From positions 1-64,000 of IMG/VR virus record IMGVR_UViG_2563367173_000002: a stretch of DNA of 64,000 nt; one strand, given 5' to 3'. The notes under the pieces are model-generated. The model was given only the letters and a program-made list of their open reading frames with translations, searched no databases and was not told the origin of the DNA. This DNA comes from a virus. Lineage: Duplodnaviria; Caudoviricetes. Each line of letters starts with the position of its first letter. Positions within the stretch are counted from its first letter, which is position 1. This document shows, piece after piece, positions 47,764 through 63,184 of the stretch. Both the position numbers and the translations under genes were made by a program.

Positions 47764-47766
47764 TTA

Positions 47767-48786
47767 TTATTTTTCTCCTCCTGTAGACTTTTCTTTAATT
47801 TCCTTAATTTCTTTTACTTTTAATCCCAATGCTTTAAGTTGATTTTCCAATTCTTTAATCTCGGCACGAATATCCTTTTTCTTTTGAGTCAATTCTTTCT
47901 GTTCTGCCTTTTCTGCTTTAGCATTAGCACTCTGCTCTTTACCAGCAAGCAATTCTGCTTCAAATCGTTCCTTCATTTTCTCTACAGAATCATCAGATTC
48001 AAATATGGAATTATCCCAGAGGTTAAATCTCTTTTCATTCCCTAAATCATAAAACTCTTTATTGAGTTCAATTCCTACTGCATTTCTACCACATTCAATA
48101 GCAACCTTATTAACTGTTCCTGCTCCCCCAAAAGGATCACACACTGTATCACCTGGACAAGACCATAATTTTACGCACCGTTTCACCAATTCTTCAGCAA
48201 ATGGAGTAGTATGTCCTATGCCAGAATTACTAATATTCCATACACCATCTGCCCAATCAGCCCACTCTTCTAATGTAATATCTGATGCCTTAATCAATTC
48301 ACAATTGCCAGACTTCTTATATACATACACAAATCCTACATTGGCAGCTAAAATCGTGTCTCTTGCCTTCATATTACGATAATATAAATTACCCTGCGCA
48401 AGCATGGCTCTCTGTGCTGAATACTTACGCCAAAATGCTTTTGTCCATAGTGAAAAATTGTTATCAAGGAAAATCTTGTTAATATCTCCTGTCAAACTTT
48501 CCTGTCCCATTTTGTTATCTCTACCAACAGTGTAATTGTAATCTTCAAACTGCATAACAAACTTTCCACCTGGCTTCAGAACCCGCTCACATTCTGTGAT
48601 TACAAGTCCCAACAAATAATAGTATTCTTCATAACTTTCACAGTTGGATAGATCAGACGGGTCATTGCTATAAACCCTAAGATTGTGATATGGGGGTGAG
48701 GTTATAATAAGATCAATGCTTTCAGCATCCATTTTCTTCAGTTCTTTAAGACAGTCTCCGTTAATCCATTCATTTTTTAATTTCAA
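47767..48786 (-). CDS. amino (N4C/N6A) DNA methyltransferase, beta class
   Basis: GDCL, TSPPY, H..PF, DPFGGAGT, GIELN. Confidence 0.9.
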   Translation of the reverse strand: MKLKNEWINGDCLKELKKMDAESIDLIITSPPYHNLRVYSNDPSDLSNCESYEEYYYLLGLVITECERVLKPGGKFVMQFEDYNYTVGRDNKMGQESLTGDINKIFLDNNFSLWTKAFWRKYSAQRAMLAQGNLYYRNMKARDTILAANVGFVYVYKKSGNCELIKASDITLEEWADWADGVWNISNSGIGHTTPFAEELVKRCVKLWSCPGDTVCDPFGGAGTVNKVAIECGRNAVGIELNKEFYDLGNEKRFNLWDNSIFESDDSVEKMKERFEAELLAGKEQSANAKAEKAEQKELTQKKKDIRAEIKELENQLKALGLKVKEIKEIKEKSTGGEK

Positions 48787-48810
48787 TATGTATATCTCCT
48801 TTACTTTTTA

Positions 48811-48922
48811 TTGAGATTAACTTCGACTTGTGATATAATCAGATAGTCAAAGTTAATCATTTGACAGTTTTTAATCTCATGCTACTGGTTGTCTCGCCAA
48901 AGTCAGACCAGTAGCATTTTTA
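48811..48922 (+). ncRNA. candidate antisense-oriented sRNA (promoter plus terminator, no ORF)
   Basis: TTGAGA-17-TATAAT (48811-48839); terminator atgctactggt..accagtagcat+T with CTCGCCAAAGT in the loop. Confidence 0.5.
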
Positions 48923-48962
48923 TATAATCATCTTTCGACGTTACTAACTACTATTTCTACTT

Positions 48963-50090
48963 TTAATAATCCAATGAATCGAAATTTTCATTTCCATATT
49001 TACTTACTTCTATTTTCTTTTCGTTCATCTCTTTGCAAAATTCTTTGTATTTTTTTGTATACTCATAACTATCGCCAAAGATGTTATTCACGGCTATAAA
49101 TAATTTTGGTTCATATTCCTTTGTTATTTTCAATTCATACTCAAAATCTCTCCCATATGGGCAACAACAGCATCCAGTACGTTTTAATCCATATTCCGTG
49201 TAACATAAACTATGTGTAATCTCATAATGTTTATCATATTCTTCTTTATCAGAATTCTTATACCAGAATAAAGGTCTGTAATTGTCATAAGTATTCTTCT
49301 TGCTTTTACCATTTTCATCAAAGCAACTTTTATACGCCGAAGATCTGGCACCACCTTCTGATTTTCTAATCCCAACTATATTTAAATCATATTCAAAATC
49401 AGATAATAATTTATGGGCTACATCCTTTTTAGCATACTTACAACATGTATTAGAAATTTTAAATTCTGGAGGATTTTCTATAATAAATTCTTTCAACCAC
49501 TTATTATATGAAATGTTAAATTTACTACCTTTCTTATACTTATTGCACCACCACAATAAAGCTGAAACACATCCTCTGTAATATTTCCCTTTATATTCCT
49601 TTACACCGTTCTTAAATTTCCCATTCTTAAAAGCATTCTCATTTGATATTTCAATACAGTACTTTTTAATTAATAAGTCAAAATCTTCACTTTCCCATTT
49701 GAAATTATATTTTTGGAGTCTTTGCATGAATTCACTGACTTGTTTTGAAAGAAATGGTTGTCCATATTGTTTACATGTTAATGGAATAGATTTTATAGCT
49801 TTGTATGGCATAATATTAATACCATATTTTTCTTCTAAATATTTCAAATGATTTTTTGTTGCTTGATATTCTAAACCAGTATCAAACCACACATATTCAA
49901 TTTTATTATCTTTATCACATTTCGTACAAATATCTAACATCACATCACTATCAGATCCTCCAGATATTGAACATACTATTTTTTCATATTTACTATTATT
50001 AATCCTTGACCATGCTCTTATTAAGTTGTCTCCAATAGTTTGATTTTGAGGACAGTTCTCTAACAGTCCTGTTAAAGTTTTTTCACCCAA
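48963..50090 (-). CDS. PAPS-reductase-family protein
   Basis: SISGGSDS PP-loop, DTGLEY, CCKYAKK, GIRKSE, RTGCCCCP. Confidence 0.85.
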   Translation of the reverse strand: MGEKTLTGLLENCPQNQTIGDNLIRAWSRINNSKYEKIVCSISGGSDSDVMLDICTKCDKDNKIEYVWFDTGLEYQATKNHLKYLEEKYGINIMPYKAIKSIPLTCKQYGQPFLSKQVSEFMQRLQKYNFKWESEDFDLLIKKYCIEISNENAFKNGKFKNGVKEYKGKYYRGCVSALLWWCNKYKKGSKFNISYNKWLKEFIIENPPEFKISNTCCKYAKKDVAHKLLSDFEYDLNIVGIRKSEGGARSSAYKSCFDENGKSKKNTYDNYRPLFWYKNSDKEEYDKHYEITHSLCYTEYGLKRTGCCCCPYGRDFEYELKITKEYEPKLFIAVNNIFGDSYEYTKKYKEFCKEMNEKKIEVSKYGNENFDSLDY

Positions 50091-50292
50091 TATGTATCTT
50101 TCCTCACGTAATTTAATCTACGTTTACGTGAGGTAAAGCCATACTTTATTCACGAATTATATTCGTATTCGTGGGTGTCTTTTTACATCACTACCACATA
50201 ACTTTTTCGATTATTTATTATCAACGTGCCACAATAAATAATCTTGTGACAACCTTTATCATCTAAAGGTTATAAATACTTTGGGTGATGGT

Positions 50293-50649
50293 TTAACCAA
50301 TCTGTAGTACAGCATCTCCTACAAATTCTACATTAAGAACTTTTATATTTTGGATAGATTCTTCGTATTCTGATTCATAATCCCTGGCAAACATATCTGC
50401 CCACATATCATCATATTCTTGTTCACTAACATTGTTTAGGACCATGTATTTTTCAGATTCTTTGTAATTTCCATTTTTCGTCTCATATCCTACAAAAACT
50501 TTATAAACTGGCAATTCCAATTTTGATTTGATAAAGTTCCTTGGATGAATATTCATCAACTTTTTCTTTAAACTATCATCAAAAATCTCAAACACATCAA
50601 TTCCTGTCCTTATTACACACCATTCAAAAAATTTACTTGGATGTAGCAC
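50293..50649 (-). CDS. hypothetical protein
   Basis: GGGGAGG RBS. Confidence 0.65.
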   Translation of the reverse strand: MLHPSKFFEWCVIRTGIDVFEIFDDSLKKKLMNIHPRNFIKSKLELPVYKVFVGYETKNGNYKESEKYMVLNNVSEQEYDDMWADMFARDYESEYEESIQNIKVLNVEFVGDAVLQIG

Positions 50650-50676
50650 TACTTTTCACCTCCCCCTCTTCATATT

Positions 50677-51591
50677 TCATTTTGAAATTGGCTTTTCCTT
50701 CTTAAATACTATTTCTTTTACACATTCCATGATTCTATTCTTGCCTATATTAAAAATCTCTTCATTATTCTCAATACAGATACATTTCCTACCTGTATTA
50801 ATAACAGCTACTCCAGTTGTCATACTGCCAGCAGTTGAATCAAGCACAGTATCACTCTCATTAGTATAAGTTTTAATAATTTCTTCTACTAACGCTACTG
50901 GCTTTTGAGTTGGAGTTAATGCACACTTTTGGGTATCCTTGGCGAATAGCCAAACTGATTTAGGAAATCTCTCTGTACTGTCATATGTATGATTTTTGAT
51001 TTCGTTGTAATTTGTTGACTGTTTACTATTTCTCTTATGTGATGCTGTACTAACTTTTCTGATATGCCCACTTGTCTTCTGCGGATTATATGTTGGCTGC
51101 TTCTTATAAAAAACGCACATATCCTCATGATTTCTCATTGGCATCCGATTAGCATTTTGAAATCCTGTAGGCTGAGTCTTCTCCCAAACGAGATTATACT
51201 TCCACATTTCTCGGTTACTTTCCATAAGATCAGCAGTAAACATACCGTTTGCAAATAAAATTATCGCTCCATTATCTTTGATAATTCTTTTATACTGAGT
51301 CCATAACCCTGTAGATTTATTTTCTTCAAAGTATATAAGTGCGCCGTTATAATCTGCTTCTCCTTGTTGATAACACCACAGAAGAAAATCATCTCTATAA
51401 AATATTCTTGGTTTTTTTCTAACTTCTATAGTTATGTAGTCATTAAATGGAATTACTATATCCCAAGAATTCCTGGCGGTCTGCCCGAAAGGGAGATCCG
51501 TAATAATTGCATCTATGGATTTATCAGGAATATTATTCATCAATTCCAGACAATCACCTTGCCATAATTCATAATTACTATTTTCAAATAT
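50677..51591 (-). CDS. N6/N4 DNA methyltransferase (DLPF variant); probable ATA start
   Basis: LWQGDCLELM upstream of the TTG at 51543; ITDLPFG, PTQKP, VLDSTAGS. Confidence 0.85.
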   Translation of the reverse strand: MFENSNYELWQGDCLELMNNIPDKSIDAIITDLPFGQTARNSWDIVIPFNDYITIEVRKKPRIFYRDDFLLWCYQQGEADYNGALIYFEENKSTGLWTQYKRIIKDNGAIILFANGMFTADLMESNREMWKYNLVWEKTQPTGFQNANRMPMRNHEDMCVFYKKQPTYNPQKTSGHIRKVSTASHKRNSKQSTNYNEIKNHTYDSTERFPKSVWLFAKDTQKCALTPTQKPVALVEEIIKTYTNESDTVLDSTAGSMTTGVAVINTGRKCICIENNEEIFNIGKNRIMECVKEIVFKKEKPISK

Positions 51592-51658
51592 TTTTCTTTT
51601 CCCAGAAAGGCATGAACATCTTACGGCTGCAGCACCTTTGTCCTTTCTGTATTATTTT

Positions 51659-51829
51659 TTATTCAATTTGATATTTGAAAGATAATGGACATCCACTATC
51701 TATATCTCCACCAAGGCACTCACCTTCACATAAACCACATTCATACTCTGGATACCCAGTGTCATGTTCATAGTAACTCTGTTCACAATATTCGCATTCT
51801 TCCCAATTCTGCTCATAAATATCTTCCAT
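51659..51829 (-). CDS. 56-aa acidic Cys-rich protein (not in ORF track)
   Basis: MEDIYEQNWEECEYCEQSYYEHDTGYPEYECGLCEGECLGGDIDSGCPLSFKYQIE*. Confidence 0.6.
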   Translation of the reverse strand: MEDIYEQNWEECEYCEQSYYEHDTGYPEYECGLCEGECLGGDIDSGCPLSFKYQIE

Positions 51830-51832
51830 AAG

Positions 51833-52423
51833 CTACGCCCTTTTATCTGCAATACATTTAATCTGATTCTCAATCTGTCGATACGTATCATTTGCAGTTA
51901 AAATACTTAATACAGCACTGGAAAGCATATTCTTTGTTGAAGAATCAAAGGTGTCCTTCATAGTTTTATTAATATCTTTCCTAATACCATCCATAAATTT
52001 GTCCAAATCAGCTTTAATCAAATCATCTACATTAAATGATCTATTAATATATTCTTCAAAAGATACTTGCTCAAAATCATCAGAATATGAAGAAGTTCTG
52101 CCTTTTTTCTTTGCTTTCAAAGTTTTAGACTCCAGACGATCTTTTAATTCCTTTTTAATATACTGCTCTACTGTATATTCTTTTTGCTCCTCATCATCCC
52201 AATAGCTATTACCACCAACCTTGATTACAGTATTTTTAATATACTCATCTACAAATTTCTGAAAGTTTGATGATACTGCATTATTTATTTCTTTCTTTGC
52301 CAACTCTTCAATTGTCTTATTTACGCTCTTTTTTACTTGCTCTTTAATAATTGTTTCAATATTATTTTCTGTAGTCTCTTTTACCAAAGATTCTAAATTT
52401 TCTAAATCAATTGTTACTTTCAA
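51833..52423 (-). CDS. hypothetical protein
   Basis: AAGGAGG RBS. Confidence 0.7.
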   Translation of the reverse strand: MKVTIDLENLESLVKETTENNIETIIKEQVKKSVNKTIEELAKKEINNAVSSNFQKFVDEYIKNTVIKVGGNSYWDDEEQKEYTVEQYIKKELKDRLESKTLKAKKKGRTSSYSDDFEQVSFEEYINRSFNVDDLIKADLDKFMDGIRKDINKTMKDTFDSSTKNMLSSAVLSILTANDTYRQIENQIKCIADKRA

Positions 52424-52456
52424 AATATTCCTCCTTAAATTTTGCTTTGAAACAGA

Positions 52457-53179
52457 TTATTTATTGTCTAGCCAATCTTTATATTGTCGAATAAGTTCTG
52501 TATACAATTCTTCGTCATTCATGTTCTCCATATCTTTAACTGAAATGAATCCAGTATTATCACACTTTCTACCTGGCATGTTATCTAAAGAACGTAGATA
52601 AGTAAATGATTCATTTCCAATTCCAACAAATTGAACAAACATATTATATTCAGATAATTCTCTTATAATTTTATCTGTTTCACTCTGATCTGAATTCGCT
52701 CCATCTGTAATAAAAATTATAAATGCAGGTATATCATTTAAACTAGTTTTGTTATAATATTTGACTATATCTCTCAATACTGGCGCATATTCTGTTCCTC
52801 CCATACACATGCCAGATTTGACCATAATATTTTTAACATAATCTTCATAATTATTAGTAGTTACTGATTTTAGTTTCTTTTTTTCGTTAGAAAACAACCA
52901 TGATTCTAATTCACCATTATCATCAAACCGTAAAGCAATTGGAAGCAGTCTTGTAATAGTTCTTTGTATAGCCCCACTACAAAATAGTTTATCCATACTT
53001 CCAGAATAATCCATAGCAAGTGCTACTTTCGCGATATGCTTGGATAAATTTACTTTACCTTCTTTTGATAAATTCACCAAAACCTTATCTAAATTATCTT
53101 TTGATTTTGACAAATTGATTATTACACTCTTTTGAGCATTGTCAACTTCCTTGTTGAAAAACTTTCCTAATAATCCCAT
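52457..53179 (-). CDS. vWA-domain protein (TerF-vWA-like)
   Basis: MIDAS DYSGSM, FDDNG, GGT.YAP, FITDG, QFVGIG. Confidence 0.85.
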   Translation of the reverse strand: MGLLGKFFNKEVDNAQKSVIINLSKSKDNLDKVLVNLSKEGKVNLSKHIAKVALAMDYSGSMDKLFCSGAIQRTITRLLPIALRFDDNGELESWLFSNEKKKLKSVTTNNYEDYVKNIMVKSGMCMGGTEYAPVLRDIVKYYNKTSLNDIPAFIIFITDGANSDQSETDKIIRELSEYNMFVQFVGIGNESFTYLRSLDNMPGRKCDNTGFISVKDMENMNDEELYTELIRQYKDWLDNK

Positions 53180-53297
53180 AATAAGAATCCTTTCTGATGT
53201 ATTTATTTTATAATATCTATAATAATAAAGTGCCAAATTTAATAAGGTCTGACACAATGACCTCTAAAAATAGCTTTAAAATCTCGATTTCATGTCT

Positions 53298-53345
53298 ATA
53301 CCATATATAGCAATCGCTTGTATAGTCAAGCACCATATATGGTAT
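53298..53345. promoter_or_regulatory. tandem NrdR-box pair
   Basis: CCATATATAG at 53301 and CCATATATGG at 53333 (32-bp offset). Confidence 0.55.
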
Positions 53346-53349
53346 ATTT

Positions 53350-54252
53350 TTATTGTTCAGACACTATCTTTTTGAACATTTCATCTACAGAATCCAATAA
53401 ATCATATCTCCTATTAAAATCAGCAGTAGAACTTCTTGCAAATTTCTGTTCAACCATATCAATGTAATAAGTCATTGAACCGTCATCCCCCATATAGAAT
53501 TCATCCCACTCTTCCTGACTCATTAATCGCTGAACTTCAAGCTGTTCAATAGCAAGATTATCAAAACTCACTACTTTGAAACGCTCAATGATTCCACCAA
53601 GATTTTCTTTCAGCCACATTTGCTTAATAATGATATTTTCGTGATCCTCACTATACCATTCACCACCACGCCTTAACTGCTTATATCCAAGGATAAGCAT
53701 CTTCAAATTCTTATCAGATAACATTTCTACGTCTGAAGGCTTGAGAATACCGTTAATCACATGTATAACTGCATTTGGATATTGCTGAATTAGTGATATA
53801 AATTCATCTGTTGGATTTACAAGTGACACACCAAGACCATATATCAATTTTTCATCAACCAACTTCTTAATCAATTCCTGTTTCTGCTCAAAGTGTTGCT
53901 GGTTTACGGTCATATTCACAATGACTTTTCTATCCTTTAGCTTATGTAAAAACGGAATCAAATCTGGATGACTTGTTGCATCACCACCACCAAGCGCAAC
54001 CTCCTGATATGGATGCAAAGTCTCGATAAACTTTTGATTCAGAATATCACCATGCTTACCATTTTTTGTGCTACCTTCATGGCAGAATTTGCAGCCCATA
54101 TCACAATAATTACTTATCTTGATATCCATATTCTCTGCAAACTCAGGAATAAATTCATCATCTTCTGTCTCTCTTATTTTGGTTCCGTCTGAAAATATGC
54201 GTGTACGCATATTCCCATTCTTATAAATTCCCAACAGATTCATTTTTATCAT
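53350..54252 (-). CDS. radical SAM protein
   Basis: CDMGCKFCHE, ALGGG, NMTVN, SFDNLA. Confidence 0.9.
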   Translation of the reverse strand: MIKMNLLGIYKNGNMRTRIFSDGTKIRETEDDEFIPEFAENMDIKISNYCDMGCKFCHEGSTKNGKHGDILNQKFIETLHPYQEVALGGGDATSHPDLIPFLHKLKDRKVIVNMTVNQQHFEQKQELIKKLVDEKLIYGLGVSLVNPTDEFISLIQQYPNAVIHVINGILKPSDVEMLSDKNLKMLILGYKQLRRGGEWYSEDHENIIIKQMWLKENLGGIIERFKVVSFDNLAIEQLEVQRLMSQEEWDEFYMGDDGSMTYYIDMVEQKFARSSTADFNRRYDLLDSVDEMFKKIVSEQ

Positions 54253-54262
54253 CCTTTCTTAA

Positions 54263-54676
54263 TTAGCAATAACCATATTCACCAAATGCAACAATTTTAT
54301 CACCATTTTTGGAAGTGTATCTCTGTACAAATGTTTCTAAATCGCCATCATGCATATATTGGTCATACGTCTTTGCGTCTTCATCAATAATGTCATTCTC
54401 TTTTGCATATTTAGTATAATATTTCTGTTTTGTATCCTCAGACAAATCATTCCAATCTTTCTGAAAATCGTCTTTATTTTCTTCATAATCTTCTTGTGCC
54501 ATTTTTTTATCATGTTCACTTAATTTTGTTGCAGATATAAAATTTTCTTCTCCATATTCATGAAATAATACTTCTCCTCTTTTCCAAGCCTCAAATTCCT
54601 CTTCACTGCACATAGTAAGTGAATGTGTGCTGCTACTATTTGTTTCAAATACTCCACGCCTTATTTGTCTCTTCAT
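54263..54676 (-). CDS. TNSSS-motif protein 1
   Basis: MKRQIRRGVFETNSSSTHSL; GGAGG RBS. Confidence 0.8.
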   Translation of the reverse strand: MKRQIRRGVFETNSSSTHSLTMCSEEEFEAWKRGEVLFHEYGEENFISATKLSEHDKKMAQEDYEENKDDFQKDWNDLSEDTKQKYYTKYAKENDIIDEDAKTYDQYMHDGDLETFVQRYTSKNGDKIVAFGEYGYC

Positions 54677-54692
54677 AAAATAAATTTCCTCC

Positions 54693-55139
54693 TTAATCAC
54701 AATCTGTTTTTAATGACACATACTTATTGAATACAAAATTGATAACCGCATCCTCATCATAAACATTGACAATTTCAATATTGCCACAGGGCCGCGACTG
54801 ATGATCAATCTCTGGTTCCTGTTCTCCTAAAATCTTAATTCCTGTCGCACCTGTATATTTACAAATAGCATCCTGAATTTCTCTAAATTCCCACTTGTCA
54901 TAAATATCAGATATATCATATCCTGACAGATAATATAAACAAGTAATCAGATAGGAAAGTTTGTCATATTGTGATGTATAAATACGTTTGTCTTTTCCAA
55001 ACTGTCCAAAATCAATTTCTATTTCTCCATCCTTATTCAGTTTGAATTCACTCGGTTCCTTGCCCTCATTAGAAATAACCAAACTGTGAACCGAAGACGA
55101 ATTTGTTTCAAATACACCTTTTCTAATCTTCCTTTTCAT
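54693..55139 (-). CDS. TNSSS-motif protein 2
   Basis: MKRKIRKGVFETNSSSVHSL; GGAGG RBS. Confidence 0.8.
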   Translation of the reverse strand: MKRKIRKGVFETNSSSVHSLVISNEGKEPSEFKLNKDGEIEIDFGQFGKDKRIYTSQYDKLSYLITCLYYLSGYDISDIYDKWEFREIQDAICKYTGATGIKILGEQEPEIDHQSRPCGNIEIVNVYDEDAVINFVFNKYVSLKTDCD

Positions 55140-55149
55140 TGATCCTCCC

Positions 55150-55863
55150 TTAATCCTCTCTTGGATATTCATGAACAATCATATCCATATTTACTAGCCC
55201 TGTTTGCTTCATATTGTCCCAATAGCAATATTCATCACCGTCTTGAATGACGACATATTTCTTATTTATAAGATATTCTTCAAGAGAAATACCTTCATGC
55301 TCTAAAAATCCACTTAGAATATCTTCATCAACATATCCTGTGCATGGTATGTCATAATGCCACCAGCCATTTGAAGATTTCCAATACTCAATTTCAAAAC
55401 CCCAATCCTTTTCTTTCTGTGATAAATATTCTTTTAGTTCATCTTCTGTCTTACCATACTTCTGATAATAGTCATCGTTTTTATGTTCTTCATCATTTTT
55501 ATCTACAATACTATCACTGTCCATTGGCAGTTTGATCTTTTTAAGACCTGGTATATATTTCAATGCAAGTGCAACGAGTTCTTTATAAACATCATCATTA
55601 TAGTCATGAACCAACGAAGCACACGCATACAACCATTTATCTGTAAATGTTCCCAAAGCCCTAAATGGACTCCTACCAAATTCCAAATCGTGATCCCAAG
55701 GCTCCCAAACACAAGATTCCTCGCCTGTATCTTCATCTTTACATAAATATATTCCGTCTAAAATTTCTTCTGGAGTATATTTATCATCTCTCTTCATAAC
55801 TGTTAAACTATGCATAGAACTCGAATTTGTTTCAAAAACATTTCTTCTAATCTGTCTCTTCAT
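55150..55863 (-). CDS. TNSSS-motif protein 3
   Basis: MKRQIRRNVFETNSSSMHSL; AAGGAG RBS. Confidence 0.8.
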   Translation of the reverse strand: MKRQIRRNVFETNSSSMHSLTVMKRDDKYTPEEILDGIYLCKDEDTGEESCVWEPWDHDLEFGRSPFRALGTFTDKWLYACASLVHDYNDDVYKELVALALKYIPGLKKIKLPMDSDSIVDKNDEEHKNDDYYQKYGKTEDELKEYLSQKEKDWGFEIEYWKSSNGWWHYDIPCTGYVDEDILSGFLEHEGISLEEYLINKKYVVIQDGDEYCYWDNMKQTGLVNMDMIVHEYPRED

Positions 55864-56752
55864 ACTTCTCCTTTTTCTCAAAAATCAGCTTATCCATATT
55901 AAATCCAGCAGCTCCCTTATGACCTCCACCACCATATTTCTTTGCAATGTTAGAAACATCCACAGTTTTTGAATACATACTATATGTCCATGTACCATTC
56001 CTTCCATTGAATGAAAATGGCATTAAAATATCATATGAATTGTCATCCACAGATTTAAACCAATCACTACCAGCAAGTCCAACATTCATTGCATACACTT
56101 TATATCCCTCAAATTCTGTTTCAAAACCTTTGGACTCGCAGTATTCTTTTGCAAAACTATCACGATACTTGATGATTACTTTTCTTTCTTCAATATATTT
56201 ATTCTCTGCATCATCATCTAAAAGGTTATACCAAATCTCGTTATCTGGGCTTTTATCGTATGCATCAAATCCCATATGAAAATATCTTGTATCATCACCA
56301 TATTCAAAAGCCCATACATCATAATCAGCGATATATTTTGTAAACATAGGTGCATCTTTTGTCATAGAAATATTAAATTTTTTCGGATTGCCACCTCCTC
56401 TTTCAGTCATATGATGTAACCAACAATATGTAAGCATACAACCGGCTATCCCGTCATATCTAATTCCACGAATAGGAATTTCAAAATCCGTATATCTTTC
56501 TATTGCTGATTTATGATGATCAATCCAGGTTACATCTTTTGTTATTTCTAACAGTTTTCTCATTTCGTCTGGCATAATTGAATAGTCAACAATATATACC
56601 TGCTCATTAGGATTTATCTTGTCAAAAGAAAATTCCATTCCATAATTGATAGGAATAAATTCTGACTCATATCCATCATATACTCCTGCACTTAAATACA
56701 CCCAAGATGCAGCACATTTCCCATCATCATCTACATGATAAAAACATTTCAA
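55847..56752 (-). CDS. DHH/DHHA1 phosphoesterase
   Basis: YHVDDDG, IVDYS, WIDHH, GGGGHKGAAGF. Confidence 0.9.
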   Translation of the reverse strand: MKCFYHVDDDGKCAASWVYLSAGVYDGYESEFIPINYGMEFSFDKINPNEQVYIVDYSIMPDEMRKLLEITKDVTWIDHHKSAIERYTDFEIPIRGIRYDGIAGCMLTYCWLHHMTERGGGNPKKFNISMTKDAPMFTKYIADYDVWAFEYGDDTRYFHMGFDAYDKSPDNEIWYNLLDDDAENKYIEERKVIIKYRDSFAKEYCESKGFETEFEGYKVYAMNVGLAGSDWFKSVDDNSYDILMPFSFNGRNGTWTYSMYSKTVDVSNIAKKYGGGGHKGAAGFNMDKLIFEKKEKYEETD

Positions 56753-56767
56753 ATTATCAAACCCTCC

Positions 56768-58135
56768 TTAAAATTTTATCCAACCATCTCTAACACCTGT
56801 CATCCAATAAACCAAATCATCTTTATTATTTTCTAATTCTCCATCTATAACACGTTTCAGTATCTCATTTAACCAATACCCAATATCTTTACCTTCTTTG
56901 AGTTTCATCACCTCTTTTACATCGTTACCATTAACCGCTAAATCCTTTAATGAGAAACAAGATTTCTCAGATAATATTTCTTCAAGAATATTTTCTATAT
57001 TATTTATTTTCTCTATCCGAGATTCTTCATAATCCGGTTTTTGTCCTTTAATATCCGCTTTCCTGACTTCTAACAACCACCTAAACTGCTTTTCACCGAT
57101 TTTATTAAGCCATCTCTTAACGTACTTATTTCCTACCTCAAAAGTCGCATCATGATAATAAACAAGTTCTACTACATTATTTCTCGTTTCATTATCAAAC
57201 CTAAGACGTTTCATAATAGAGTCTGTAATTTCAGCACTTACCTTTCCGTGACCTTTAAAATGTCTAATACCATCTTCTCCATCTTGGTAGGAATATGGTT
57301 TGCCGAAATCATGAAAGAAAACAGCAAGTCTAACCACTAAATCATCAGACTCACATTTCTCTATTGCATGGACTGTATGATCAAATACATCATATGCATG
57401 ATATGGATTATTTTGTTGGAAACCTATCAAGTCTTTTAATTCTGGGATAAATAAGGAAAATACGTTTGGATATAAAACTAATTCAACACAGAATTGTTCA
57501 GAAGCAACTATTTTACAAAATTCACTATTAATTCTCTCAATTGAGATGTTCTTTAGTCTGTCATATTGTCGTTCTATTTCAAACATTGTTTCTGGGAGTC
57601 CTGCAAAACCTAGTTGTGCTTCAAATCTTATTGCTCTCAATATCCTCAAAGCGTCTTCGTTGAACCTGTCTTCTGCGGAGCCAACGCATCGAATCTTTTT
57701 ATATTTGATATCCTCCATGCCATTAAACGGATCAATTAAACCAGTTTTAGGATTGTATGCCATAGCATTAATCGTAAAATCTCTTCTCCGTAAATCTTCA
57801 ACCAGATTCTTTGTAAATGTTACATTGTCAGGTCTACGATTATCAGAATAATCTCCATCAATCCGATAAGTTGTAACTTCAAATGGTTCTTTATTTATCA
57901 GAATCGTTACTGTACCGTGTTGCAAACCAGTAGGAATAATTTCTTCATCAGGAAACGCTTTTAATATCTCATCTGGTGTGGCAGATGTGCAAATATCATA
58001 GTCGTGAGGTTTTCTTCCCAATACGCTATCTCTTACACATCCACCCACCATATATACTTCATGTCCGCATTTCTCTAATTCCTGTATGATGTAATTTACT
58101 GGTGCCGGAACTTCTACATTAATTCTTTTCATCAA
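56768..58135 (-). CDS. CCA-adding/poly(A) polymerase-family nucleotidyltransferase with HD domain
   Basis: VGGCVRD, DYDI, DLRRRDFTINAMA, EDALRILRAIRF, HD(FGK). Confidence 0.9.
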   Translation of the reverse strand: MMKRINVEVPAPVNYIIQELEKCGHEVYMVGGCVRDSVLGRKPHDYDICTSATPDEILKAFPDEEIIPTGLQHGTVTILINKEPFEVTTYRIDGDYSDNRRPDNVTFTKNLVEDLRRRDFTINAMAYNPKTGLIDPFNGMEDIKYKKIRCVGSAEDRFNEDALRILRAIRFEAQLGFAGLPETMFEIERQYDRLKNISIERINSEFCKIVASEQFCVELVLYPNVFSLFIPELKDLIGFQQNNPYHAYDVFDHTVHAIEKCESDDLVVRLAVFFHDFGKPYSYQDGEDGIRHFKGHGKVSAEITDSIMKRLRFDNETRNNVVELVYYHDATFEVGNKYVKRWLNKIGEKQFRWLLEVRKADIKGQKPDYEESRIEKINNIENILEEILSEKSCFSLKDLAVNGNDVKEVMKLKEGKDIGYWLNEILKRVIDGELENNKDDLVYWMTGVRDGWIKF

Positions 58136-59075
58136 TATTTACCTCAATTTGTGGAGTTTCAATAAACTTAGCCAATAATCCTTCGTGGTAAAAAATTTTG
58201 TCATTTTCAGTAACATCTTCTCCAAGAAACTTTCTTAAAACAAATGGTAACGCATAATTATCTAAACATTTAAACTCTATCTCTGTATTATCATTCTCAT
58301 CAATAATTTCTTTATAATATCCATCTGTCTTAACAATTTTATGAAGTATAAACAATTCTGTTTTTAACGGAACAGGCATATCTTTCATACCATTGCGAAT
58401 TGCAAACACGATTCTTTCTTGCTTATTTTTGTCCATATCAGACACATCAACCACAATTTCATCATTGGAAAAGAATACAACACGATCCATTGAAATAAAC
58501 ACTTCTGTTAAATATGTCAATGCACCATCCATAAGGTATTTTTCGTATGTGATATGTCTCTTAGGATTACAATTACCCAAAATAACCTGACGAATATATT
58601 TACTATTGATTATGTGCTGATTACCTGTATATCTCCCAATAAACTCTTCCCAAGATTCTGCTCCACCAAAAATATCTGAATTGTAATGATGTAAAGAAGA
58701 AAAATTAGCTTTTCTCATATCAATGCTGATAAAACATTTACCATCATTTGAAGACTTAAATATATCTTTATTTGGAAGATTTTTATGTGTAACAGCATAC
58801 TTGTTCATATCCTCTTCATTAAACTTATGATATGCTTCTGTATTTTTAATATCCAAAATAGCAGCATCTTTTACACGATTATATTCTTCAAAATAATCCT
58901 GTTCACAATTATATTTGGATAGTTCGCTTAAAAAGATATCCCACTTTTCAAGTGTCCCATAAAACTTATCATATAGTGCCAATATATCAGTAAAATATGG
59001 TTCCTGGAATATCCTGATTGGAATATTACAATCTTTACAGAACCTCTCTTTTGCTCTTGTAGATACTTCCATCAT
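58119..59075 (-). CDS. hypothetical protein with polymerase-palm-like motifs
   Basis: FISIDMRKANF and VFFSNDEIVV resemble polymerase motifs A and C. Confidence 0.65.
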   Translation of the reverse strand: MMEVSTRAKERFCKDCNIPIRIFQEPYFTDILALYDKFYGTLEKWDIFLSELSKYNCEQDYFEEYNRVKDAAILDIKNTEAYHKFNEEDMNKYAVTHKNLPNKDIFKSSNDGKCFISIDMRKANFSSLHHYNSDIFGGAESWEEFIGRYTGNQHIINSKYIRQVILGNCNPKRHITYEKYLMDGALTYLTEVFISMDRVVFFSNDEIVVDVSDMDKNKQERIVFAIRNGMKDMPVPLKTELFILHKIVKTDGYYKEIIDENDNTEIEFKCLDNYALPFVLRKFLGEDVTENDKIFYHEGLLAKFIETPQIEVNIDEKN

Positions 59076-60100
59076 ACCTCTCCCTTCACAATTCTCTCAT
59101 TCACATACATCTTAAATTCATTAATTCTTTTATGATCTGGCACATTAGGAAGAGATGTATTGTTTTTAGCATAATCAAATCTCTTCTCATATTCATTCAA
59201 CAAATCATAAAATTCAGTAATCGGTTGTTTATTTTCATCTAAAAACTCACCGTTGCGAATACTCATAAGTAAGTCATGTTCATCCGTCCTATATGTGATG
59301 ATTTCTTCTTTTTCAAGAATATCAATACACATCATATAAAGACGAATCAAGTGAGCCATATGCTTCCCCAACTTGTCATGACTGATCGCTTTCTCGTTTC
59401 GTTTGTCAATTTTGTTATAACTGCTTACAATCGCCTTCATTTCATTCCACATACCAGTCCAATCTCTCAAAGGATAATGTTTCAAACATACGTCCATAAA
59501 AATCTCGCTATCATATCCTTCTTGGACTGCTGTATCAATATATAACTTTACATCACTCTCATCATGTGGATAATATCTGTTTTTGAAATCATATTTTGCG
59601 TTATTGATACTTTTTAAAATATACGCTTCGTTCTGTGCCTGACCAACTAATCTTGCGGCTTTATTTTCCATCCTACGGAGTTGGCTACCGGCATATCCAC
59701 CAAATGTATGAATACAGATTTTAGATAGAAACATTTTTCTATTTTCCAAAAGTTCTCTTCCAACACTTGATAAATGTAGATAATGTTCTGGCTTGCAGCC
59801 CAAAATTTCCACTGTGTTAGGATTGTTGGATGTAAGTAATTGAATCATTTTATTAAATGAATATATCGTAGTGTCAGTATCTGCATTCACGACCTGCTCA
59901 AAATCTGTTCCTAACAGAATGTCTTTCTTAGAATTTAAGGCGATACCTCGCACATCTAAGTCAGATCCTTCTTTATCCATTCCATAAGCGTGACTTCCTC
60001 CAAGAGTTAAGAGAATGATGTTATCACCTAAATTCTTATCTTTTCTCAGGAAGTCATATTCACTTGTTTTCAATTTCTCTTTAATCTGTTCAATATTCAT
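59072..60100 (-). CDS. Pol-beta-superfamily nucleotidyltransferase (YcgL/RlaP-like)
   Basis: GGSHAYG..SDLDVRG, NPNTVE, KHMAHLIRL. Confidence 0.85.
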   Translation of the reverse strand: MNIEQIKEKLKTSEYDFLRKDKNLGDNIILLTLGGSHAYGMDKEGSDLDVRGIALNSKKDILLGTDFEQVVNADTDTTIYSFNKMIQLLTSNNPNTVEILGCKPEHYLHLSSVGRELLENRKMFLSKICIHTFGGYAGSQLRRMENKAARLVGQAQNEAYILKSINNAKYDFKNRYYPHDESDVKLYIDTAVQEGYDSEIFMDVCLKHYPLRDWTGMWNEMKAIVSSYNKIDKRNEKAISHDKLGKHMAHLIRLYMMCIDILEKEEIITYRTDEHDLLMSIRNGEFLDENKQPITEFYDLLNEYEKRFDYAKNNTSLPNVPDHKRINEFKMYVNERIVKGEV

Positions 60101-60117
60101 TCTCTCAATCCTCTCTT

Positions 60118-60477
60118 CTATCTACATTCTTCAAATACAATAATCTTAAACACAGGTTTAAAATGTGGATTTTTTGTAATCACTCCCAGTTCTTGAAGTT
60201 TTACCAATTCTGCTTTCACCTTACCAAAACATTTTTCAATATCAGACACATCAAACATTTCTGTATCAAAACTATACTCATTACCAGAAGCCAAAACATA
60301 TCCAAAATATAAATGTGAACCACTCATCTGATCATCGAAAAATTGAATCTCGCCTTTGCACTGGTTGCAAATATAATCTTCTCCTTCATCTGACCACTTC
60401 CAATCTTTAAATTTATCTGTTTCGTTGCCAGTCAAATCATAACCAGCTATTACATAATAATTACTTTCCATGCTCAT
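60118..60477 (-). CDS. hypothetical protein
   Basis: AGGAGG upstream of MSMES. Confidence 0.65.
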   Translation of the reverse strand: MSMESNYYVIAGYDLTGNETDKFKDWKWSDEGEDYICNQCKGEIQFFDDQMSGSHLYFGYVLASGNEYSFDTEMFDVSDIEKCFGKVKAELVKLQELGVITKNPHFKPVFKIIVFEECR

Positions 60478-60517
60478 AACTTCTTTTTCTCCTCCTATGA
60501 AATGCAAGTTTTAAGAC

Positions 60518-60856
60518 TCAATATGCTCTATCATCAATAGATTCTATAGATTTAATTTCATCAAGTATAGAACTTCCTATAATGTATAGTTTTTTAGAAA
60601 CTATCTTGCTAATTCTACTTATAAAATCCTCCCAACGCTCATACTTTTCTAACCATACTGTCATACTTACATTTCCATTTATATGTTGACATGCATATGT
60701 TCCTTTTGTATATTCTTCTCCATAATAGTAGAAATATAGTTCATATTTATGTAAATGCTTACTAATAAACCAAGGAACAAGCGAAGCGATTGTCACATAT
60801 TTATTCCCAATTTTAATTTGGAAATCAGTGTTACTTCCATTTTTTACAGTTTTCAA
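60518..60856 (-). CDS. hypothetical protein
   Basis: GAGGA RBS. Confidence 0.6.
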   Translation of the reverse strand: MKTVKNGSNTDFQIKIGNKYVTIASLVPWFISKHLHKYELYFYYYGEEYTKGTYACQHINGNVSMTVWLEKYERWEDFISRISKIVSKKLYIIGSSILDEIKSIESIDDRAY

Positions 60857-60876
60857 TCGTCTATATCCTCTACAAT

Positions 60877-61362
60877 TTATGGCACAATCCTAATAATCTC
60901 TTTTCCACATTTCCCAGCATATCTTACACAATTACCAGTACCACCCTTAGAACCGTCCCACACAGCAATCACTTTATCAGCCAAATCAACCATATATTCA
61001 TTTCTCTTTTGCATCAGCCAGGGTTTATATTCTTCATCTGACACAAGTTTTACTGTGTCTGCTTTTGATAAAATATCATTATATAAATCAACACTTTCCT
61101 TAATCCATTTACATGAATGATTTTTACATGGGATTGCACAGTGAAGTTTTATATCATACCACTCTTCTTTTAATTCCAGAACTGCCAACGCAAATACTGT
61201 ATCCACTCCTAATGCCATACCTGTAATTGCTTCATCACAGATATTTTCTACAAGTAATTCTTTGAATTTATTTTTTAATTCCGACCATTGCCTATTATAA
61301 ATATCATAACCATACATTTTATTTGGTCTATGACCAGTAACACATATTTTCATAGATCGCAC
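60877..61362 (-). CDS. YspA/DUF1273 SLOG-family protein
   Basis: VTGHRP, TGMALGVD, QKRNEYMVD, VWDG.KGGT. Confidence 0.85.
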   Translation of the reverse strand: MRSMKICVTGHRPNKMYGYDIYNRQWSELKNKFKELLVENICDEAITGMALGVDTVFALAVLELKEEWYDIKLHCAIPCKNHSCKWIKESVDLYNDILSKADTVKLVSDEEYKPWLMQKRNEYMVDLADKVIAVWDGSKGGTGNCVRYAGKCGKEIIRIVP

Positions 61363-61384
61363 CCCCTTTCTTGAAACGTGGGTT

Positions 61385-63184
61385 TTAAGACTTTTTCACT
61401 ACAACCAACGAATCCTTCTGAACTGTTGTAATTGCATTTGATAATTCATCATTTCTTACTTCTATCTGTTGCTCGGTTTTACCCTCTGAATTATATCTAC
61501 CACGCATAGCAGCACCAACAGCATATAAATAACTAAAACCACCTGCATTACCTACTGGCTGTGACAACAGAGCCATTGCAATCGCATCTGCATCATACAC
61601 CCTATTTCCTTGTCTAAATTGCTTACCAAAATTTATTTCTCCAATCCCACCAACTAATATCGGTTTATGATTACCACAAACAGAATCTAGTCCGCTTGTG
61701 GGATTGATAAAATTTATCATTTTCTCATCTATGCAAATATATGTATCATCATACTGAGCCTTATACAAATGCTCAATTAATAGTGAAATTGCTGTTGTTA
61801 CAATTGAATTTCCTGATTGTTTATACCCTTGGGTATCAGACATTCCAACTGCTTTACATCTCTCAAAATCTTCATCATCAAATCCCATAAGTCTATGAGC
61901 TTCTTTAGGTGTAAGCTTTCTTACAATTCTAAGATTATCTCTTTCAACTTTTGGCTCAGTATTACCACCACCACAAGTATGCATCGCAGGAGCAATACCA
62001 TCTTCACTATATATTCCCCGTGACTGTTCATGCATCCTTTGGAATTTCTCACTGCACAAATCAGCAATATGTATCGGCTCATTTGTTGTGTCCAATATCT
62101 GTTTAGGTTGCTTATAATCAGTAGCAAGTAATGCGTCCATAATTGAATCTTTTTGATATACTAAATCTCTTTGCCCGATAGTCCTAAATTCTGGTTTTGT
62201 TGTATCAACAATATTTTTTTCAAATTTCGGATCGGTAATTTGTAGTCTTCTTTGCACTTCATCCGACAAAAAATATTTATCTAAAACTTCGTCATCCGTT
62301 TCTAATAAATCTTTTAATCGAATTCCATTATCAAATGGTTGAGGGAATTTAAACTGTTCTGTATCAATTTCTTTAAGAATGGAAACGCAGAAAATTCTAT
62401 TTCGGTTCTGTGGTATGCCTGTGTTTTTTGCATTGATTGTTTGAAAATATGAGTTATATCCCAAGTTGTCCAATCTATCAATCCAATCATTAAAACTATC
62501 AATATATTTTTTAGACACAAGAGCATCTACATTTTCCATAAGTAAATATTTTGGCAAATTATTGTTTTCATTTGCCTTTACAAGCAGTCTTTCTACTTCA
62601 TACAACAACCCTGAACGAGTTGACTTAATATTATTACTTCCGCAACAAGGACATTTATATCTTGTATCAACATTTAATTTTGATGGGTCATATTCCATAC
62701 CACAATCTTGACAAGTCCACTTTAACCCTTCCTGTTTTCCTGCAATCGATAAATCAGTACACGGCGTTGAATATGTAAGCATATCACAATCCGACAGTTC
62801 TTTAATCTGCATTATATCTCCCAAATTATGTGAAATATGATCAGCCAACCAGTATTTTTCTATGCCTTTCGTTTTGTCTTTCTTTTTTGATAACTTTTCC
62901 CAATCATATGGTTCATCTTTTTTAAAATCAAATCCTAATCTTTTCTTAGATAACTCATTCACCATTTCATCCTTGGAAGGATAATTACCATATTCATTAA
63001 TCATTTCATTAGTTAATCCACAATGAATAGCAGCATAACTAACAATAACCTCTTTATCTAAATCTGCTGTTGCGACAACCTCTGCGTCAAACAGATTTGT
63101 ATTATTAATTCCTTTTATCTGTGCACCAATTCCACTACACAACTCAATAACTTTTAAACTAAATCTTTTATTATTACTTTCCAA
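61385..63184 (-). CDS. dcm: C5 DNA cytosine methyltransferase
   Basis: ELCSGIG, STPCTDLS, MENV, PQNRNR, RLMGF, KQSGNS; Zn-ribbon insert CQDC..CPCC. Confidence 0.92.
   Translation of the reverse strand: MESNNKRFSLKVIELCSGIGAQIKGINNTNLFDAEVVATADLDKEVIVSYAAIHCGLTNEMINEYGNYPSKDEMVNELSKKRLGFDFKKDEPYDWEKLSKKKDKTKGIEKYWLADHISHNLGDIMQIKELSDCDMLTYSTPCTDLSIAGKQEGLKWTCQDCGMEYDPSKLNVDTRYKCPCCGSNNIKSTRSGLLYEVERLLVKANENNNLPKYLLMENVDALVSKKYIDSFNDWIDRLDNLGYNSYFQTINAKNTGIPQNRNRIFCVSILKEIDTEQFKFPQPFDNGIRLKDLLETDDEVLDKYFLSDEVQRRLQITDPKFEKNIVDTTKPEFRTIGQRDLVYQKDSIMDALLATDYKQPKQILDTTNEPIHIADLCSEKFQRMHEQSRGIYSEDGIAPAMHTCGGGNTEPKVERDNLRIVRKLTPKEAHRLMGFDDEDFERCKAVGMSDTQGYKQSGNSIVTTAISLLIEHLYKAQYDDTYICIDEKMINFINPTSGLDSVCGNHKPILVGGIGEINFGKQFRQGNRVYDADAIAMALLSQPVGNAGGFSYLYAVGAAMRGRYNSEGKTEQQIEVRNDELSNAITTVQKDSLVVVKKS

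Follow-up and report, generated by a model that had tools for sequence, protein, structure and literature searches.

The question raised by this locus is why three adjacent phage genes, whose products differ in length and sequence, begin with one and the same peptide and lie directly beside a gene for a radical S-adenosylmethionine (SAM) enzyme. The genes occupy positions 53,350 to 55,863 of the first 64,000 nt of the Caudoviricetes record IMGVR_UViG_2563367173_000002, a stretch referred to hereafter as the window. An initial annotation, made from the letters of the window alone, had proposed an undescribed post-translational modification system in which the enzyme acts on a set of variable proteins. 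Our analysis leads us to conclude firmly that the radical-SAM enzyme and the proteins sharing the peptide (hereafter the tail) form a functional unit. Direct contact between the two through the tail is likely, and in the reading that we favour, held at somewhat under an even chance, the tail is bound by the enzyme and modified within its serine-rich segment at S14/S15. We infer the binding, the role of the tail as substrate and the residue that is changed from the observations given below. The genes and the tail codons within them are as follows (the long and short types are the two families of tail-protein bodies, that is, of the parts downstream of the tail):

55150..55863, minus strand: m3 (open reading frame, ORF), a 237-aa tail protein of the long type, in which the family motif xDHQS has degenerated to VDEDI
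54693..55139, minus strand: m2 (ORF, profile searches and AlphaFold2 model), a 148-aa tail protein of the long type
Within m2: residues conserved in the alignment, Q57, K60, I111-D112-H113-Q114-S115, N138-K139, T145 and D148
54263..54676, minus strand: m1 (ORF), a 137-aa tail protein of the short type, with the C-terminal family hairpin ...G-D-x-I-V-A-F-G-x-Y-G
53350..54252, minus strand: the radical-SAM gene (ORF, PF04055, phrog_16999), 300 aa, with CxxxCxxC formed by C50/C54/C57
55804..55863, minus strand: codons 1-20 of m3, the invariant N-terminal tail
55080..55139, minus strand: codons 1-20 of m2, the invariant N-terminal tail
54617..54676, minus strand: codons 1-20 of m1, the invariant N-terminal tail, with a break relative to a related locus (L001) just after, at about 54633

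The three proteins start with MKRQIRRNVFETNSSSMHSL, MKRKIRKGVFETNSSSVHSL and MKRQIRRGVFETNSSSTHSL, that is, with the common pattern M-K-R-x-I-R-x-x-V-F-E-T-N-S-S-S-x-H-S-L. The start was taken in each case as the ATG preceding the conserved MKRxIR, and a Shine-Dalgarno-like AGGAG or GGAGG can be read directly 4-10 nt 5' of each of these ATG codons. The ATG of the radical-SAM gene lies 10 nt beyond the m1 stop codon. A six-frame pattern scan of the 64-kb window found exactly three copies of the motif (m1, m2 and m3), and a profile search of the whole 110,561-base record found the same three and none besides. The ORFs, the scan and the coordinates thus agree with the layout first described, in which three adjacent motif genes of 137, 148 and 237 codons are followed 10 bp downstream by a CxxxCxxC radical-SAM gene. 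The serine codons of the three copies are AGT AGC AGC, TCG TCT TCG and TCG AGT TCT, so that the AGY and TCN families switch between copies; this indicates selection at the protein level, as had been proposed, and not recent copying of DNA. Counts from a promoter and terminator scan were not above those of shuffled sequences, so that the scan gives no information on operon structure.

Do the two components belong together outside this window? The module was defined by two features, an N-terminal R-x-x-h-[FW]-x-T-x-S-S tail lying no more than ~20 residues from Met1 and, encoded by the same genome, a radical-SAM protein belonging to the phrog_16999 clade; the window has both. When viral loci were anchored on the motif, a member of the enzyme clade (39-94% identity) was found within 6 kb in 69 of 80 cases. 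Five of the other 11 loci were searched over their whole record: four carry the enzyme elsewhere and the fifth is a 22%-complete fragment. The remaining six (L004, L005, L042, L053, L058 and L075) were outside that search; contig ends truncate L004, L042, L053 and L058, and the contig of L005 is 10,289 bp long. Anchoring on the enzyme, in a sample that consists of close relatives only (74-94% identity), gave one to three tail genes on the same strand in 79 of 80 loci, the exception being a 1.9-kb fragment. Pooling both sets, with contigs present in each of them counted twice, tail genes accompany 140 of the 141 full-length enzymes. In an even sample of Clostridia, 2 of 399 scored genomes contain the enzyme and 2 of 400 match the tail profile. 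Both searches pick out one and the same pair of genomes, in which the genes are adjacent, and no genome has one gene alone. Likewise, in a collection of 50,697 phage records, all 15 records matched by m2 are among the 32 matched by the enzyme. The number of tail proteins per genome ranges from one to six. Apart from the enzyme, no neighbouring family occurs in more than 16 of the 80 motif-anchored loci. The suggested link between motif and enzyme clade was therefore borne out in both directions, and no tail protein without the enzyme was found in records complete enough to judge.

The link is also seen in a natural fusion. Protein gp146c of Salmonella phage Arash, 476 aa long and annotated as 'methyltransferase', consists of a tail, a long-type body and a radical-SAM part, and its residues 1-462 align in two pieces to the separate proteins gp130 and gp128 of Microcystis phage Ma-LMM01. 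Arash thus offers a single-gene form of the module in a phage with a laboratory Salmonella host. No relatives of the Arash fusion were found in IMG/VR. A second natural fusion of the same kind may be represented by A0A6J5LQS4 (461 aa, from an uncultured phage), which is annotated as 'Radical_SAM domain containing protein' and came up as the third-best match of the m2 body among the predicted viral structures of BFVD (E 0.24, prob 0.47). Three other joined proteins on short contigs (P0124, P0268 and P0272), in which two tail proteins, or a tail protein and half of the enzyme, are combined, are probably artefacts of read-through, frameshift or assembly. Among them, P0272, which joins an m3-type N-terminal part to the C-terminal half of the enzyme without the cluster motif, was judged to be a deletion or assembly artefact and not a Rosetta stone.

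The module is widespread, being found in large phages of Prevotella, Rhodothermus, Microcystis, Thermus and Salmonella as well as in Bacillota genome records, where it lies on contigs from many genome bins. Lak megaphages of Prevotella carry it, Lak-B3 having the enzyme and four tail genes. Three cultured phage-host pairs have it too, namely Ma-LMM01, with gp130 as tail protein and gp128 as enzyme, Rhodothermus phage RM378 (p106 and p108) and Thermus phage phiYS40, where gp162 overlaps gp161 and the tail is more degenerate. As a separate observation, positions 46499-63141 of the window are 99.95% identical over 16.6 kb to locus L081, on contig AQFT02000004.1 of a genome record titled Eubacterium plexicaudatum ASF492. 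A named isolate of the Lachnospiraceae thus has a near-identical copy of the phage in its genome record.

Which part of the tail is constant was addressed with a set of 185 distinct tail-bearing proteins from the 80 viral loci and the window, giving the consensus M-K-[RK]-Q-I-R-x-[GN]-V-F-E-T-N-S-S-S-x-H-S-L. Since the set was picked by the E/T/N/S/H pattern, only the flanking positions of the tail are unbiased in it. The motif Glu is residue 10 or 11 in 166 of the 185 proteins, the other 19 positions possibly reflecting start-codon choice, and an Arg stands five residues ahead of it in 176/176. The strict motif is present in 118 of the 120 m2 relatives listed, the remaining two differing only by a change of the third Ser to Ala, and in 130 of 147 further representatives from an m2-family profile search, which were not selected on the motif. 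The 17 others comprise four changes of the third Ser to Ala, seven other changes (e.g. F-E-T-A-S-S-A-x-H), five N-terminally truncated fragments and a single protein without a tail, P0152, in which the body is duplicated. Distant variants read F-A-T-N-S-S-S-S-H in Arash, L-S-T-N-S-S-S-S-H in RM378 and M-T-N-S-S-S-A-S-M in phiYS40, so that T-x-S-S is the sole constant part of the motif across distant members. This narrows the modification at NSSS envisaged by the initial annotation to S14/S15: these two serines are deeply invariant, whereas N13 and S16 are replaced in some homologues. A bacterial N-glycosylation sequon (E-x-N-x-S) was considered and dropped, the Asn being changed to Ala in some members.

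The tails of one genome also resemble each other. Comparison of short-type with long-type proteins gives a tail identity of 0.727 for proteins of one locus (n=69) against 0.650 for those of different loci (n=4681), and a change from F to W before the motif Glu tends to be common to all paralogues of one locus. Such concerted tails are as expected if all the tails of a genome have to fit one partner, although gene conversion could produce the same pattern. The tip of the tail (M-K-R-x-I-R) is basic, the tail proteins as a whole being acidic (median isoelectric point about 4.5-4.65), and the tail has no invariant Gly.

According to the reading that we favour, the module would be a two-component, phage-specific system in which a conserved radical-SAM enzyme with a single cluster has a changing set of small acidic proteins as its direct targets. 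The free N-terminal tail, made up of the basic tip M-K-R-x-I-R, then V-F-E and then T-N-S-S-S-x-H-S, would be recognised by the enzyme, and the 5'-deoxyadenosyl radical would most likely be used to modify the Ser-rich segment, in which S14/S15 are the deeply invariant residues. Partner domains unrelated to each other would thereby gain a common chemical handle or a protein-derived cofactor. The segment is polar, Ser-rich, terminal and probably flexible, the enzyme is small and has one cluster only, and it faces many partners, as in the sets of RiPP (ribosomally synthesised and post-translationally modified peptide) maturases with their precursors and of activases with their glycyl-radical enzymes.

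A conserved N-terminus on tandem hypervariable phage proteins could have a quite different meaning. The loci of T4 internal proteins have this same arrangement, those proteins are cleaved at L/I-x-E sites, and V-F-E would fit such a hydrophobic-x-Glu site; the tail could then be a capsid-targeting sequence with a site for the prohead protease, the bodies injected effectors and the neighbourhood of the enzyme incidental. We regard this as very improbable. The T4-type proteins have no enzyme partner, while the radical-SAM gene is obligatory to the module and once fused to its partner, and its association with the tail is near-universal over very divergent phages. Moreover, Arash, RM378 and phiYS40 have other residues in place of the motif Glu, and the genes lie among genes for replication and RNA repair, not among head genes. 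The part of the Arash virion proteome table that covers the neighbours Gp143 and Gp149 does not include Gp146 (PMC10585845).

What, then, are the bodies that carry the tail? No Pfam or NCBIfam family was matched by any of m1 to m3. Proteins m1 and m2 match one unnamed PHROG via their N-termini, and m3 matches no PHROG. In a large protein collection m2 has 422 relatives, all of them nameless, and a profile of the m2 family built from 44 relatives reaches at least 2639 clusters at 50% identity (E<=1e-3). After removal of the tail, BLAST comparisons resolved two main families. The long family (112 sequences of 141-286 aa) includes m2 and m3 and keeps xDHQ in 53 members; the short family (52 sequences of 92-147 aa) includes m1. 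The faint similarity of m2 and m3 past the motif, mentioned in the initial annotation, is thus real, as motif-stripped BLAST joins the two via intermediates. Long and short families are homologous only over residues 1-41 (hhalign probability 99%), which shows that the tail is a module common to otherwise unrelated bodies.

AlphaFold2 models were made for one member of each family. In the m2 model (44 sequences) the mean predicted local distance difference test (pLDDT) score is 89.2, with 44 for residues 1-10, 61 for residues 11-20 and 89-98 for the rest; in the m1 model (35 sequences) the mean is 85.7, with 51 and 69 in the tail and 80-96 elsewhere. In neither of two independent families, then, did AlphaFold2 model the motif as a buried strand (44-69 in the tail against 80-98 for the rest), the outcome that would have counted against the initial proposal. 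No solved fold corresponds to either body. For m2, Foldseek gave nothing in the PDB at E<=0.001, the best VIA-wide match had Z 2.7, and the two other BFVD matches are uncharacterised viral proteins of 182 aa; its sequence profile gave only a chance-level PDB match (E 0.64). For m1, the best VIA-wide match had Z 4.7 and BFVD gave nothing at E<=0.001. In the ESM Atlas, all matches were to viral clusters without a name or to generic Radical_SAM clusters. Two further ideas were dropped: a Toprim-like site formed by a Glu and a DxD motif had no supporting fold match, and a self-cleaving precursor of the pyruvoyl or Ntn type lacked evidence and would leave the radical-SAM enzyme unexplained.

These data bear on the idea that the two components work in one pathway without touching. 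The tail proteins would then be enzymes of new fold, E/T-x-S-S-x-x-H being their own catalytic, metal-binding or phosphate-binding loop, and they would act before or after the radical-SAM enzyme in the synthesis of a nucleotide, nucleic acid or metabolite that carries a modification. The motif does look like a strand followed by a polar loop, as in an active-site element, the long family also has xDHQS and C-terminal DxD-like motifs, and the genomic context is one of nucleic-acid metabolism. We nevertheless consider this rather unlikely. Of the 112 long-type proteins, the 59 without xDHQ keep the tail, as does the unrelated short family, and the function of the tail is therefore independent of the remaining putative site. 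Furthermore, AlphaFold2 packs the tail onto neither body in the predicted structures, P0152 has the body without the tail, internal catalytic loops do not usually keep a constant spacing from Met1, and one to six fast-diverging paralogues per genome are unusual for pathway enzymes.

The bodies change much faster than the enzyme. Among pairs of loci whose enzymes are 90-99.5% identical, the median best identity between bodies is 30%, and 37% of the bodies have no homologue at 60% coverage. The description of the tail proteins as variable effectors fits this hypervariability, which points to a role in phage-host conflict. The DNA homology of the window to L001 covers m3 and m2, ends ~43 nt into m1 and returns at the radical-SAM gene, and in L082 the m3 slot is filled by a different tail protein of the 160-aa class. 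With breaks near the tail codons and a slot swapped, the bodies resemble cassettes that have been exchanged at the tail-coding sequence, which may itself serve as the recombination joint for body swapping.

Rapid replacement of bodies beside a constant enzyme, with a mosaic breakpoint just after the tail codons, would also be expected if the tail proteins were exchangeable partner subunits. That is, the tail would be a docking peptide that may add active-site residues, the bodies would choose or hold the targets (e.g. host defence proteins, tRNAs or other RNA, DNA, or nucleotides), and the enzyme would act on this third party. The fusion of body and enzyme is a classic sign of a single complex, to which the weak match to A0A6J5LQS4 may add a second case, and the concerted evolution of tails within a genome, the conserved polar residues within the long-type body and the lack in the enzyme of the auxiliary clusters of known Ser-oxidising or cross-linking radical-SAM enzymes all agree with it, as do neighbours acting in RNA repair or on nucleic acids (RlaP, CCA-adding enzyme and DHH phosphoesterase here, RNA ligases in RM378 and Arash). 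On the other hand, docking motifs are typically hydrophobic and T-N-S-S-S consists of small polar residues, the short family has little beyond the tail and a ~75-aa domain, and no neighbouring family besides the enzyme reaches beyond 16/80 loci. We see exchangeable subunits as the close rival of tail modification, a tentative possibility clearly short of an even chance. In its boldest form, in which shuffled adaptors would plug by their tails into a programmable radical enzyme and aim its chemistry at host macromolecules, by analogy with the logic of F-box proteins and in an arms race over targets such as defence proteins or damaged or targeted tRNAs, the idea is doubtful.

The enzyme itself belongs to the radical-SAM superfamily by PF04055, scoring 32.4 bits where the gathering score is 29.5, and to phrog_16999 (E 2.4e-48). 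C50, C54 and C57 are invariant in 36/36 aligned members of the family (37-94% identity). They are the only cysteines in the protein of the window, and the family alignment has no further invariant Cys, from which it follows that the cysteines of SPASM or twitch domains are missing. Other conserved features are an acidic N-terminal extension (Y-x-N-G-N ... D-G-T-K-I-R-E-T-x-D-D-E-F), two C-terminal blocks (S-F-D-N-L-A-x-E-Q-L and W-x-x-F-Y-M-G-D-D-G) and A-L-G-G-G-D at residues 86-91, which reads G-G-G-N in other members and N-G-N-D or N-L-N in some. Residues 86-91 may correspond to the glycine-rich SAM-binding motif of the 'GGE' type. The best PDB match of the enzyme profile had E 0.015, that is, the enzyme has no close solved relative. 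It scored far below the cut-off of every NCBIfam radical-SAM equivalog, including NrdG2 (23.9 bits, cut-off 131.15) and NrdG (13.5, cut-off 126.1), and NCBIfam models with SPASM or twitch domains matched its N-terminal core only, again far below their cut-offs. Among PADLOC families, the one match was to the prokaryotic viperin model pVip, weak and confined to the core (21.1 bits, residues 45-131 only), no other defence-system family being hit; an identity as prokaryotic viperin was rejected (NCBIfam viperin 17.3 against a cut-off of 180).

An unusual gene of this family was seen at L051:1931-4431, on a Lak-like viral contig of 553,716 bp, where a break in the enzyme gene falls immediately ahead of the third Cys of CxxxCxxC. 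The piece upstream of it runs on as C-L-V-P-N-T-K..., and downstream, in another frame, ...N-I-L-V-H-N precedes C-Y-E-G-C; reading TAG as Q still does not give one frame. The break looks like that of an intein, possibly a split one with an intervening gene (a 'fractured gene').

How does the module compare with known systems? It is closest in kind to pairs of radical-SAM maturase and substrate, with a real chance of something more unusual. The anaerobic sulfatase-maturating enzymes (anSMEs, such as AtsB) and their Ser- or Cys-type sulfatases likewise have a radical-SAM gene beside the proteins matured, and a Ser in a short N-proximal motif is turned into a protein-derived cofactor. However, the target there is C/S-x-P-x-R, whereas m1 to m3 carry F-E-T-N-S-S-S-x-H-S and are not sulfatases, and the two members modelled (m1 and m2) match no known fold. 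The anSMEs have a SPASM domain with two auxiliary clusters; unlike them, the clade described here has the three cluster cysteines only and no match to an anSME family in NCBIfam. With the glycyl-radical activases (PflA, NrdG), whose substrates include small 'spare part' proteins such as GrcA, the module shares a small single-cluster enzyme acting on folded proteins, and one activase for several paralogous substrates marked by a common short peptide; with its three cluster cysteines and about 300 aa, the enzyme resembles protein-activating radical-SAM enzymes such as the pyruvate formate-lyase activating enzyme. The glycyl-radical motif, though, is a C-terminal R-V-x-G loop, not an N-terminal tail without invariant Gly, and m1 to m3 gave no match to Gly_radical in Pfam. 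With the radical-SAM maturases of RiPPs, the module has in common one enzyme with several co-located substrates, a conserved N-terminal segment and variable sequence downstream. It differs from them in that neither domains like the RiPP recognition element (RRE) or PqqD nor SPASM or twitch domains were found, that its 'cores' are folded domains of 80-270 aa and not peptides, and that the conserved segment itself is likely to be acted on. The tested defining features of anSME, glycyl-radical activase and SPASM/twitch systems are not present in the module.

Several of these observations weigh against modification of the tail. To our knowledge, the known peptide-modifying radical-SAM enzymes that oxidise Ser or form cross-links (anSMEs and SPASM/twitch enzymes) need auxiliary clusters, and radical-SAM epimerases need an extra Cys; the clade of the window has neither the auxiliary-cluster cysteines nor the extra Cys. 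It is on this point that the initial proposal has to be qualified: pairing, fusion, tail and variability all agree with a modification system acting on variable proteins, but the fusion and the conserved polar residues of the long-type body suit partner subunits equally well, and the cysteines of the anSMEs and RiPP maturases that it had cited as models are lacking. In addition, hmmscan of the proteins of the locus found no PqqD-like RiPP-recognition domain, and the N-terminal extension of the enzyme, at ~40 aa, is too short for an RRE. An enzyme is less often fused to its substrate than to another subunit or to a partner in its pathway. Invariant polar residues are also present in the long-type body itself (Q57, K60, D112, N138 and T145, with H113, Q114 and S115 nearly invariant in the alignment), and judging from these it could be an enzyme or a binding domain in its turn. 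Within the tail, E11, N13, S16 and H18 are each substituted in some homologues. Finally, invariant columns give AlphaFold2 no covariation, and a low pLDDT is therefore not proof that the tail is free. Probability left over from the four readings considered here falls to mechanisms not yet thought of.

A described function was found for neither half of the module. No paper on the tail motif or on a phage radical-SAM module was found, subscription-only papers and supplements being outside reach, and the statement of the initial annotation that the motif has no described function stands within the literature searched, as do the lack of a Pfam or NCBIfam partner family and of a solved relative. 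The word 'radical' does not occur in the main text of a comparative study of jumbo-phage genomes (PMC7824862), and the main text of the Ma-LMM01 transcriptome paper names neither gp128 nor gp130 (PMC5780444). If modification of the tail is the true reading, the module would represent a new radical modification of proteins serving many unrelated domains; if the tail proteins are subunits, it would represent a radical-SAM enzyme with exchangeable targeting subunits, and the biology would be new either way.

The genes of the region are all on the minus strand and tightly packed, in the order DHH phosphoesterase, m3, m2, m1, radical-SAM enzyme and vWA-TerF-like protein. The neighbours of the module in the window are:

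61385-63184: C5 DNA methylase
60877-61362: YpsA/SLOG protein
59072-60100: RlaP nucleotidyltransferase
56768-58135: CCA-adding enzyme
55847-56752, minus strand: DHH phosphoesterase (phrog_4771, E 2.4e-47)
52457-53257, minus strand: vWA-TerF-like protein, separated from the radical-SAM gene by a gap of 92 nt
50677-51543: N6/N4 DNA methylase-like gene, called from a D-L-P-F-G motif read by eye only
48963-50090: PAPS-reductase-like protein
47767-48786: N6/N4 DNA methylase-like gene (Pfam)
46276-47763: SNF2 helicase

The window is thus dense in genes for nucleic-acid modification and RNA repair between 45486 and 63184, three DNA methyltransferases among them. An RNA ligase also lies near the module in RM378 and in Arash, and RM378 has a poly(A)-polymerase-like gene in addition. 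In L018 the RlaP gene (6493-7527) even sits between the tail gene (6001-6489) and the radical-SAM gene (from 7527), and the same spacing of ~1 kb is seen in L017 and L020-L023. This neighbourhood hints at nucleic-acid or anti-defence biology, but the conservation of each nucleic-acid neighbour is too low for it to belong to the module. After the enzyme, the most frequent families around the 80 motif-anchored loci are class-V aminotransferase (16), isochorismatase (12), Band_7 (12) and RlaP (11). The class-V aminotransferase is cysteine-desulfurase-like, which fits a supply of Fe-S clusters.

Two further genes recur near the module. A homologue of adenylosuccinate synthetase (PF00709, E 5.7e-35 for L045:4855-5955) was seen in 10/80 loci, including L043-L045; phage homologues of this enzyme (PurZ) presumably make 2-aminoadenine DNA. 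A second radical-SAM-like protein of ~213 aa with a CxxxCxxC of its own lies a few kb from the module in 9/80 loci (e.g. L048:9755-10393) and scores 25.2 bits against PF04055, under the cut-off of 29.5.

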